Sequence record: PQ850609.1
Reading direction: 5' to 3' (one strand)
Length of the DNA stretch: 38,575 nucleotides
Source of the DNA: Escherichia phage Huey
Under the pieces are notes generated by a model, which saw only the letters and a list, made by a program, of their open reading frames with translations, was not told where the DNA came from and searched no databases. The position numbers and the translations under genes are program-made. This document shows, piece by piece, positions 18,715 to 19,265 of the stretch; within the stretch, counting starts at the first letter, position 1, and each line of letters starts with the position of its first letter.

Positions 18715-18820
18715 CGCAAAGTCTCCGCAATTACACGCAAGAAAAGCCGCATTGATGCGGCGATGGTAGGTCTGGATATCATTGAGAAATGAACAGGCCT
18801 CATCGAGTGTGAGGCTGTGG

Positions 18821-19165
18821 TTAGTCCTTGCGTAGCTCGCTGATTCTTCTGTAAGTCTCTGGTGCTTTGTTTCCGTGTATCTTCATTTCAGACTTCAACA
18901 GAGCAACGAGGGAATCCCATTCGTTGAGGATTCCTTTGAATGCAGGAACGCGCTTTGCAACTTTGTCGAATGAAGCTCTGATTTCTGGAATCTGCTCAAC
19001 AAGTGCAACGCATCGCCGGAAGTCTGCTGCGTCATGTGGAGCGCCGAAGTGATGACCATAGATATTCTTTTTCAGTCCACATGCGATTGAGGCAAGAGTT
19101 GCGCTACTTATGCCAACATCGCCAGTCGATTGCCATTTCAAAACCTTCATAGCCAAATCTGACAT
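18821..19165 (-). CDS. Hypothetical protein (114 aa) between xis and the upstream terminator hairpin
   Basis: ATG 19165-19163 with GGAG SD 7 nt upstream; sits immediately downstream (in transcription direction) of an intrinsic terminator. Confidence 0.5.
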   Translation of the reverse strand: MSDLAMKVLKWQSTGDVGISSATLASIACGLKKNIYGHHFGAPHDAADFRRCVALVEQIPEIRASFDKVAKRVPAFKGILNEWDSLVALLKSEMKIHGNKAPETYRRISELRKD

Positions 19166-19176
19166 TTCTTGTCTCC

Positions 19177-19199
19177 AATAAAAAACCGCCATCAGGCGG
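19177..19199 (-). terminator. Intrinsic terminator in leftward operon
   Basis: CCGCC-ATCA-GGCGG hairpin with 6-7 T run on minus strand; I recall the same sequence directly after xis in lambda. Confidence 0.6.
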
Positions 19200-19265
19200 C
19201 TTGGTGTTCTTTCAGTTCTTCAATTCGAATATTGGTTACATTGTTTTCATATATGAATAAATAAA

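Follow-up and report, generated by a model that had tools for sequence, protein, structure and literature searches.

Immediately ahead of xis in Escherichia phage Huey (sequence record PQ850609.1; the whole 38,575-nt stretch is referred to below as the window) lies ORF114, a gene of 114 codons that phage lambda lacks. We find that ORF114 is a conserved protein-coding gene under selection, that it is a resident and dispensable cassette of lambdoid phages, and that it is the last gene ahead of xis in a co-oriented early-left operon which encodes an N-like antiterminator. The segment carrying ORF114 is probably a resident cassette of the variable distal part of this early-left (pL, exo–xis) operon, where it would be expressed by antitermination and would provide an early lytic accessory protein. 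An initial reading made from the sequence alone (the original prediction) had proposed that the gene was inserted beside xis as a moron, i.e. a gene that has its own promoter and is expressed from a repressed prophage; there is no good evidence for such a self-expressed moron.

ORF114 is a conserved gene catalogued in phages 434 and HK022

The open reading frame (ORF) of 114 amino acids plus stop, together with its GGAG Shine-Dalgarno sequence, was confirmed as predicted in both the ORF list and the sequence (coordinates of all features are given in Table 1). An extended form of 123 amino acids beginning at 19192 was rejected, since that start lies inside the upstream hairpin (hairpin 1) and family alignments begin at M1 of the 114-residue form. 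Plus-strand antisense ORFs (18867–19052 and others) found no support.

The gene is already known, having been catalogued since the int–xis regions of 434 and HK022 were sequenced. GenBank M60848.1 (434) annotates precisely ORF114 (AAA67902.1), with ORF55 upstream and t-L4 further up, and the same gene is CPT_434_33 in OL657226, a 2021 re-annotation of 434. The Huey protein is identical to 434 ORF114 at 110 of 114 residues (96%) and shares 97% identity with HK022 gp32 (HK022_32, ‘N15 early protein homolog’) and 98% with GALLYPH_20 of Gally. These three genes, all of 114 codons, occupy the same slot as ORF114 of Huey, between orf55/hairpin 1 on one side and hairpin 2 (the terminator t'-I) and xis on the other, and they share its Shine-Dalgarno sequence and 3′ untranslated region. 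In contrast to 434, HK022 and Gally, the window keeps no more of orf55 than its final 15 codons plus stop, with a zinc-ribbon gene instead; furthermore, its backbone is P22/Sf6-like and not lambda/434-like. The exact Huey protein sequence is present on 151 contigs of the protein collection, labelled ‘hypothetical protein’ in every case. The product matches PHROG 1229, itself a family of unknown function, along its full length (E = 3e-51; residues 1–114 against profile positions 1–113 of 116). Both findings that the original prediction had named as counting against it, a resident gene in close relatives and a product with a known family, were thus observed.

Several observations demonstrate that ORF114 is maintained as a coding gene. 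The ratio of nonsynonymous to synonymous polymorphism (pN/pS) is 0.19 over 24 alleles, and both the Shine-Dalgarno sequence and the start codon are kept in 47/47 loci examined. The GC content of ORF114 (46.4%, and 45.2% at third codon positions, GC3) was compared with that of xis (48.9%), int (45.3%) and the window (47.7%), and base composition relative to the neighbours gave no sign of insertion.

The region differs from lambda by 438 bp between two hairpins

We aligned the region with lambda, 434 and HK022. In lambda, GGCGGTTTTTT is joined directly to CTTGCGTGTAATTGC, whereas the window, 434 and HK022 have 438 bp extra at this point (about 18742–19179 in the window, the placement being ambiguous by 4 T's). 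Lambda has neither ORF114 nor hairpin 2, and therefore hairpin 1 itself adjoins pI: the lambda sequence reads GCCGCCTGATGGCGGTTTTTT followed at once by CTTGCGTGTAATTGC, with hairpin 1 running straight into the cII site of pI. The order in the window, 434 and HK022 is GGCGGTTTTTT, ATTGGAGACAAGAAATG, ORF114 and then, further on, GCCGCATCAATGCGGCTTTT followed by CTTGCGTGTAATTGC. The lambda orf55–xis junction (NC_001416, 29078–29118) has the same hairpin with the orf55 stop in its loop, the same pI cII site and the same xis start, and differs in being without the 438 bp of ORF114 plus hairpin 2. The lambda arrangement was described correctly in the original prediction (hairpin beside xis, no ORF114), and the presence of extra DNA was also borne out, although its length had been put at ~470 bp.

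The alignment shows hairpin 1 to be identical to the hairpin at the end of lambda orf55, with the TGA stop codon of that gene in the loop. Hairpin 2, whose palindrome GCCGCATTGATGCGGC occupies 18746–18761, carries the label terminator t'-I in GenBank M60848, and OL657226 likewise marks it as a terminator. In the latter record the hairpin-2 terminator overlaps the cII site and the pI −35, and a sequence identical to TTGCGTGTAATTGC is annotated there as the CII binding site plus pI −35 of phage 434. Both hairpins are followed by a T-run on the coding (minus) strand and both are kept in relatives, and each hairpin region outfolds 199/200 shuffles (z = −2.6). Terminator-like patterns in the whole 2.9-kb region numbered 5 against 2.7 ± 1.8 expected, a count that is not significant by itself. 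The stem-loop in the 3′ untranslated region of ORF114 (18797–18815) is likewise kept in mEp213, HK97 and 434, and an Rfam scan of 17000–20200 returned no match.

Because int and xis are on the minus strand, leftward (pL) transcription proceeds towards lower coordinates. The scan and fold agree with the predicted position of ORF114 between two terminator-like hairpins, and its location downstream of the first hairpin on leftward transcripts is supported as well. Both hairpins had been foreseen with displaced coordinates: the lambda-type hairpin had been placed at 19177–19199 and lies at 19180–19206, and the palindrome had been placed at 18729–18744, 17 bp too low. They had also been thought to adjoin the xis stop; since xis is on the minus strand, the hairpins instead adjoin the xis start, on the side of pI and the cII site.

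ORF114 is a resident cassette with recombining boundaries

The idea of ORF114 as an inserted gene was not supported, as the gene is resident at the same position in close relatives and there is no compositional insertion signature. ORF114 is found in the same slot in 434, HK022, Gally and an Stx1a phage. Among 5426 complete E. coli genomes, 2792 match part of 18640–19240; the whole xis–hairpin 2–ORF114–hairpin 1 layout is present in 405 (coverage of at least 80%), and many other matching genomes show a lambda-type match in two pieces. In IMG/VR, the hairpin-2 junction occurs on 42 contigs, 39 with a full-length ORF114 and 3 with fragments, and the exact lambda junction occurs on at least 120 contigs, with ORF114 in none.

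The boundaries of the cassette were examined in 47 loci with a full ORF114. Hairpin 1 is present in 27 of them, with orf55 or an orf55 remnant ahead. In the other 20, precisely orf55 and hairpin 1 are absent, and the tL4 region is fused directly to the ORF114 ribosome-binding site (IMG/VR loci of this kind include L163:3120–3260, L146, L165, L169, L150, L177, L141 and L137). The crossover in these 20 loci lies inside TTTTAT(T)GGAGA, which is common to the ribosome-binding regions of orf55 and ORF114, and therefore the cassette boundaries act as recombination or deletion points. Indeed, the sequences ahead of orf55, ORF114 and xis are alike, each having a GC hairpin, a T-run and (A)TTG(C)GGAGA, and the contexts of the two hairpins can be aligned to one another. 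Next to the same xis, every combination of orf55 and ORF114 was observed except ‘neither’.

More distant junctions tell a similar story of exchange. In mEp213, hairpin 2 marks the exact join between ORF114 and an unrelated int/xis module; as the homology ends just before the hairpin, hairpin 2 belongs to the lambda-type pI/xis module. HK97 gp37 (L013, 1843–2533) is an Ea22-like chimera that ends in the last 15 codons of ORF114 and is followed by the t'-I hairpin and xis, and we interpret this tail as what remains of an ORF114 once carried by the HK97 lineage. Databases hold many chimeras of ORF114 fragments with Kil, Erf, Ea22 or DUF550 (dATP/dGTP pyrophosphohydrolase-like) sequences (entries P0015, P0017, P0028, P0037, P0049, P0054 and P0223), which indicates frequent recombination breakpoints within the gene.

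On these alignments, the locus is standard lambdoid mosaicism, with cassettes shuffled or deleted at short repeated boundaries. The notable local event in the window is the replacement of orf55 by the zinc-ribbon gene, not an insertion of ORF114. The mosaic junction lies at 19239/19240, with an unrelated module from 19240 upstream, and the same layout of orf55 remnant plus zinc-ribbon gene is present in Stx1a_EH2115 and in IMG/VR contigs L136 and L172. As ORF114 is resident in relatives, HK97 keeps a remnant and the GC content matches that of the neighbours, loss in the lambda lineage would be at least as likely as gain in the lineage of the window.

ORF114 belongs to a widespread family with a predicted helical fold

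An exhaustive phmmer search with ORF114 returned 1869 clusters at 50% identity (E ≤ 1e-3), and tblastn identified homologues in 278 phage records. These include lambdoid and P22-like phages (in SPN9CC the gene lies between eaA and int), N15-like PY54, Mu-like SuMu and Mannheimia phages, and further homologues are present in ~150 Vibrio phages (podoviruses among them), in the virulent Sashavirus Sergei and Carvajevirus, and in Arthrobacter and Clavibacter phages. On metagenomic and actinobacterial contigs, the homologue sits in tight early arrays with genes for YqaJ, single-stranded DNA-binding protein (SSB), a DnaB-like protein, HNH, WhiB, a methylase and glutaredoxin. The neighbourhoods of 8 distant phage homologues and 4 metagenome/genome homologues contained no constant partner gene, only an early/DNA-metabolism context.

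A set of 46 diverse members was aligned, all of which match PHROG 1229. Eight residues are invariant in this set, and all are present in the Huey protein: G18, S20, P43, D45, D48, R51, C52 and W83. The AlphaFold2 model of ORF114 has seven helices (predicted local distance difference test score, pLDDT, 93; predicted template modelling score, pTM, 0.86), and the modelled fold is confident, all-helical and apparently new, without a solved analogue. ORF114 gave no match in Pfam, NCBIfam or PADLOC, and Pfam matched none of the 46 members. Searches of the PDB by sequence and by the 46-member profile gave nothing below E 0.2, a BFVD fold search retrieved only uncharacterised phage homologues, and there was no sequence or fold match to catalogued defence or anti-defence families. 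The extra N- or C-terminal regions of longer homologues have no Pfam or PHROG annotation, and the fusions therefore give no functional clue. A literature search on ORF114, phrog_1229 and exo–xis/HK022 found no functional study. A DNA mimic or a general nucleic-acid binder was considered and rejected on account of the net charge of the family, which ranges from −8 to +8.

As a separate observation, two unrelated actinobacterial prophages (L178, 6001–6635; L180, 245–5222) each have a phage glutaredoxin gene beside or close to a distant homologue. Given the invariant C52, this proximity may be a coincidence or a hint of redox chemistry.

Operon context and expression of the Gally copy

In the direction of pL transcription, the early-left operon of the window is listed from the repressor onwards, and the co-oriented gene order after the repressor is N-like antiterminator, Erf, SSB, endonuclease, Abc2, Ea22-like, DUF551, zinc-ribbon ORF, ORF114, xis and int. 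In lambda, the exo–xis region comprises orf60a, orf63, orf61, orf73, ea22, ea8.5 and orf55, small non-essential early genes of the pL operon that lie between the recombination genes and xis and whose distal part varies (PMC8614690). Like these genes, ORF114 is a small pL-operon accessory gene ahead of xis; unlike them, it is absent from the proteins modelled or tested in that review, and it resembles them neither in sequence nor in fold.

The Gally prophage of E. coli LF82 has hairpins 1 and 2 identical to those of the window, and published RNA sequencing (RNA-seq) of this lysogen bears on ORF114 expression. In overnight culture in lysogeny broth (LB), GALLYPH_20 was at 13.9 compared with a prophage median of 15.6 and 727 for the repressor, under the 5-fold cut-off of the authors, who concluded that Gally is ‘devoid of any moron’ (PMC9928086). 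They describe GALLYPH_20 as ‘the last gene before xis’ of a leftward region that is partly up-regulated in macrophages, with xis and int not up-regulated (PMC9928086). GALLYPH_22, 21 and 20 (L008, 1373–2345) rose 4- to 16-fold in macrophages and after 6 h in Dulbecco's modified Eagle medium (DMEM), where the rise was about 8-fold (PMC9928086, S1 Table). The log2 values in DMEM at 6 h were 6.3 for GALLYPH_22, 7.5 for orf55 and 6.9 for ORF114, with 3.6 for EaA and about 3.0 for xis (PMC9928086). This rise of the cluster could reflect a local condition-dependent promoter or RNA fragments stabilised by the hairpins. Our analysis of these data supports hairpin 2 as an effective terminator and suggests that hairpin 1 is leaky.

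Alternative explanations for ORF114

An ORF114 that was independently acquired, insulated by terminators and expressed from its own promoter in the repressed prophage to the benefit of the lysogen, for example by phage exclusion, is improbable. The term moron is used here in the sense of the HK97/HK022 genome analysis of Juhala et al. 2000, with lambda bor and lom and HK97 gp15 as examples. As in morons, a single gene comes and goes between two genes that are direct neighbours in a relative, here lambda, and an intrinsic terminator follows it; ORF114 has a terminator-like hairpin on either side, and the levels of GALLYPH_22, 21 and 20 in DMEM (log2 6.3–7.6, well apart from EaA and xis) are compatible with a local condition-dependent unit. 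In contrast to morons, neither a promoter of its own nor an atypical base composition was found. No minus-strand sigma-70-like promoter near ORF114 reached the threshold of consensus scans, which miss atypical promoters, and a relaxed scan gave only two 8/12 matches, the nearer of which is upstream of hairpin 1 and so ahead of the terminator. The promoter prediction that had been proposed thus yielded no site better than 8/12, and the interval between the hairpin-1 T-run and the ATG of ORF114 is only 14 nt. GC and GC3 are neighbour-like, PADLOC gave no match, and ORF114 is co-oriented in an early operon, with homologues in virulent phages and within overlapping early operons. In addition, the Gally copy is at background in the LB lysogen, the authors of that study found no moron, and the upstream DNA that possibly holds a Gally promoter (orf55 and GALLYPH_22) is replaced in the window. 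With no promoter found, the Gally copy at LB background and homologues in early operons of virulent phages, the predicted moron with its own expression in lysogens was not supported.

A role in integration or excision, in which ORF114 would modulate site-specific recombination or the expression of pI and xis, is highly unlikely, even though ORF114 adjoins xis or int in the window, 434, HK022, Gally, mEp213 and the P22-like SPN9CC, and helix 1–loop–helix 2 of the model, with its G-(I/V)-S-S-x-T motif, appears faintly helix-turn-helix-like. The gene pairs with unrelated int/xis modules in mEp213 and SPN9CC, it is dispensable in lambda, HK97 and at least 120 contigs that have the same xis, and it is common in integrase-less phages (Sergei, Carvaje, Mu-like phages and Vibrio podoviruses); the charge of the family is not consistently basic either. 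Finally, the lack of any Pfam, NCBIfam or PDB match, and the frequency with which the gene is truncated or fused in databases, might have suggested that the ORF arose by chance, or is a pseudogene in decay, within non-coding spacer DNA between terminators. This explanation is already refuted by the conservation data: the low pN/pS, the conserved start codon and Shine-Dalgarno sequence, and the 1869 clusters spread across phages of Proteobacteria and Actinobacteria with common invariant residues. The confident AlphaFold2 model also speaks against it, and its probability is negligible.

A model for the ORF114 cassette

We therefore return to ORF114 as a resident cassette of the distal early-left operon. 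The cassette would consist of the ribosome-binding site, ORF114, the 3′ stem-loop and terminator t'-I, and would have been inherited vertically and mosaically, not recently inserted. Recombination between short boundary repeats would precisely remove or join cassettes, lambda representing the form without ORF114 and hairpin 2. The presence or absence of ORF114 in relatives would arise because orf55, ORF114 and xis are each preceded by a similar boundary of hairpin, T-run and Shine-Dalgarno-type sequence. During infection or induction, ORF114 would be transcribed mainly on N-antiterminated pL transcripts. Without antitermination, hairpin 1 would lower entry into ORF114, and hairpin 2 (t'-I) would stop non-antiterminated transcripts ahead of pI, xis and int. 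At the weakest step of the model, ORF114 would encode a small, soluble and helical protein whose target, in the host or the phage, is engaged early in the lytic programme, possibly through a putative conserved surface or pocket formed by G18, S20, S21, P43, D45, D48, R51, C52 and W83. Because homologues occur in virulent phages and the context is an early operon, we propose that ORF114 may be a dispensable factor of the host-takeover or counter-defence type and not a lysogenic-conversion factor.

Several points weigh against this model. Present sequences do not prove either direction of the indel, be it loss from lambda or acquisition by a 434-like ancestor. In Gally, EaA, EaD, EaE and N are near background while GALLYPH_22, orf55 and ORF114 rise, a pattern that simple pL read-through would not predict. 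The invariant S20 and D45-P-x-D48 match motifs for helix N-capping and may have a structural role in place of forming a functional site, and a net charge of −8 to +8 gives the family no consistent signature of nucleic-acid binding or DNA mimicry. The proposed biochemical function is inference throughout.

Other features of the window

In the window, the P22/Sf6-like backbone of a lambdoid phage carries a lambda-type integration module (Table 1). No phage-collection record covers more than 54% of 14000–38575, and no tRNA genes were found in the window. The lambda-type attP, int and xis stand in a genome otherwise matching P22/Sf6-like podoviruses, and xis aligns with the xis genes of lambda, 434 and HK022.

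Table 1. Coordinates of ORF114 and other features in the window (38,575 nt)
Feature	Coordinates	Strand	Basis or remarks
ORF114, early-operon accessory protein (proposed), PHROG 1229	18821–19165	−	Predicted all-helical
GGAG Shine-Dalgarno sequence of ORF114	19173–19176	−	7 nt 5′ of ATG (19165); read from sequence
Hairpin 1, AAGCCGCCTGATGGCGGTTT + T-run (AAGCCGCC-UGAU-GGCGGUUU)	19180–19206	−	Lambda-type AAAAAACCGCCATCAGGCGGCTTGGTG; scan, fold, alignment
Hairpin 2 (t'-I), GCCGCATCAATGCGGC then TTTTC (GCCGCA-UCAA-UGCGGC then UUUUC)	18742–18761	−	Terminator scan, fold
Further stem-loop GCCTCACACTCGATGAGGC in ORF114 3′ untranslated region	18797–18815	−	Scan, fold; moves with ORF114
cII-binding TTGC-N6-TTGC site, TTGCGTGTAATTGC, pI −35 region	18727–18740	−	Exact match; xis-side edge of indel
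xis, lambda type	18496–18714	−	Pfam PF07825 Exc, E = 7.5e-41; start codon towards ORF114
orf55 non-coding remnant, last 15 codons + stop	19192–19239	−	Alignments; no in-frame start upstream
70-amino-acid zinc-ribbon ORF, PHROG 2945, in place of orf55	19266–19478	−	ORF list, profile matches
attP, lambda-type, intact	17240–17420		Core GCTTTTTTATACTAA at about 17360–17374
int	17448–18518	−	
N-like antiterminator	25243–25701		Repressor-adjacent
Repressor	26320–26952		

Two neighbouring ORFs showed resemblances of their own. The 70-residue zinc-ribbon ORF, with its CxxC...CxxC pattern, gave a sub-threshold match to Lar restriction-alleviation proteins (PF14354; E = 1.2e-4; 22.7 bits against a cut-off of 28.6) and, also below threshold, a match to HVO_2753-type zinc ribbons. 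Just left of attP, a plus-strand ORF at 16479–16967 resembles UmuD/LexA-type Peptidase_S24 (PF00717; E = 1.9e-6). Conversion genes are usual in this attP-side slot in P22/Sf6-like phages. The ORF seems to read GATH at what we take to be the position of the catalytic GDSM of UmuD, and may be inactive.

Implications for the lambdoid early-left region

For genome annotation the ORF114 finding is routine, since the gene, the terminator and their absence from lambda have long been in GenBank. The locus offers a clear case from nature of cassettes gained and lost at repeated boundaries of terminator, T-run and Shine-Dalgarno sequence. A bolder extension, which we put forward tentatively and think rather unlikely to hold in full, is that the large unnamed early-protein family uses its S/D/D/R/C/W constellation as a binding site for host takeover or counter-defence, and that loss and gain of the cassette reflect selection by the defence repertoire of the host. 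ORF114 comes from a very widespread and uncharacterised family of early proteins, and the copies in 434, HK022 and phi80-type prophages can easily be knocked out.

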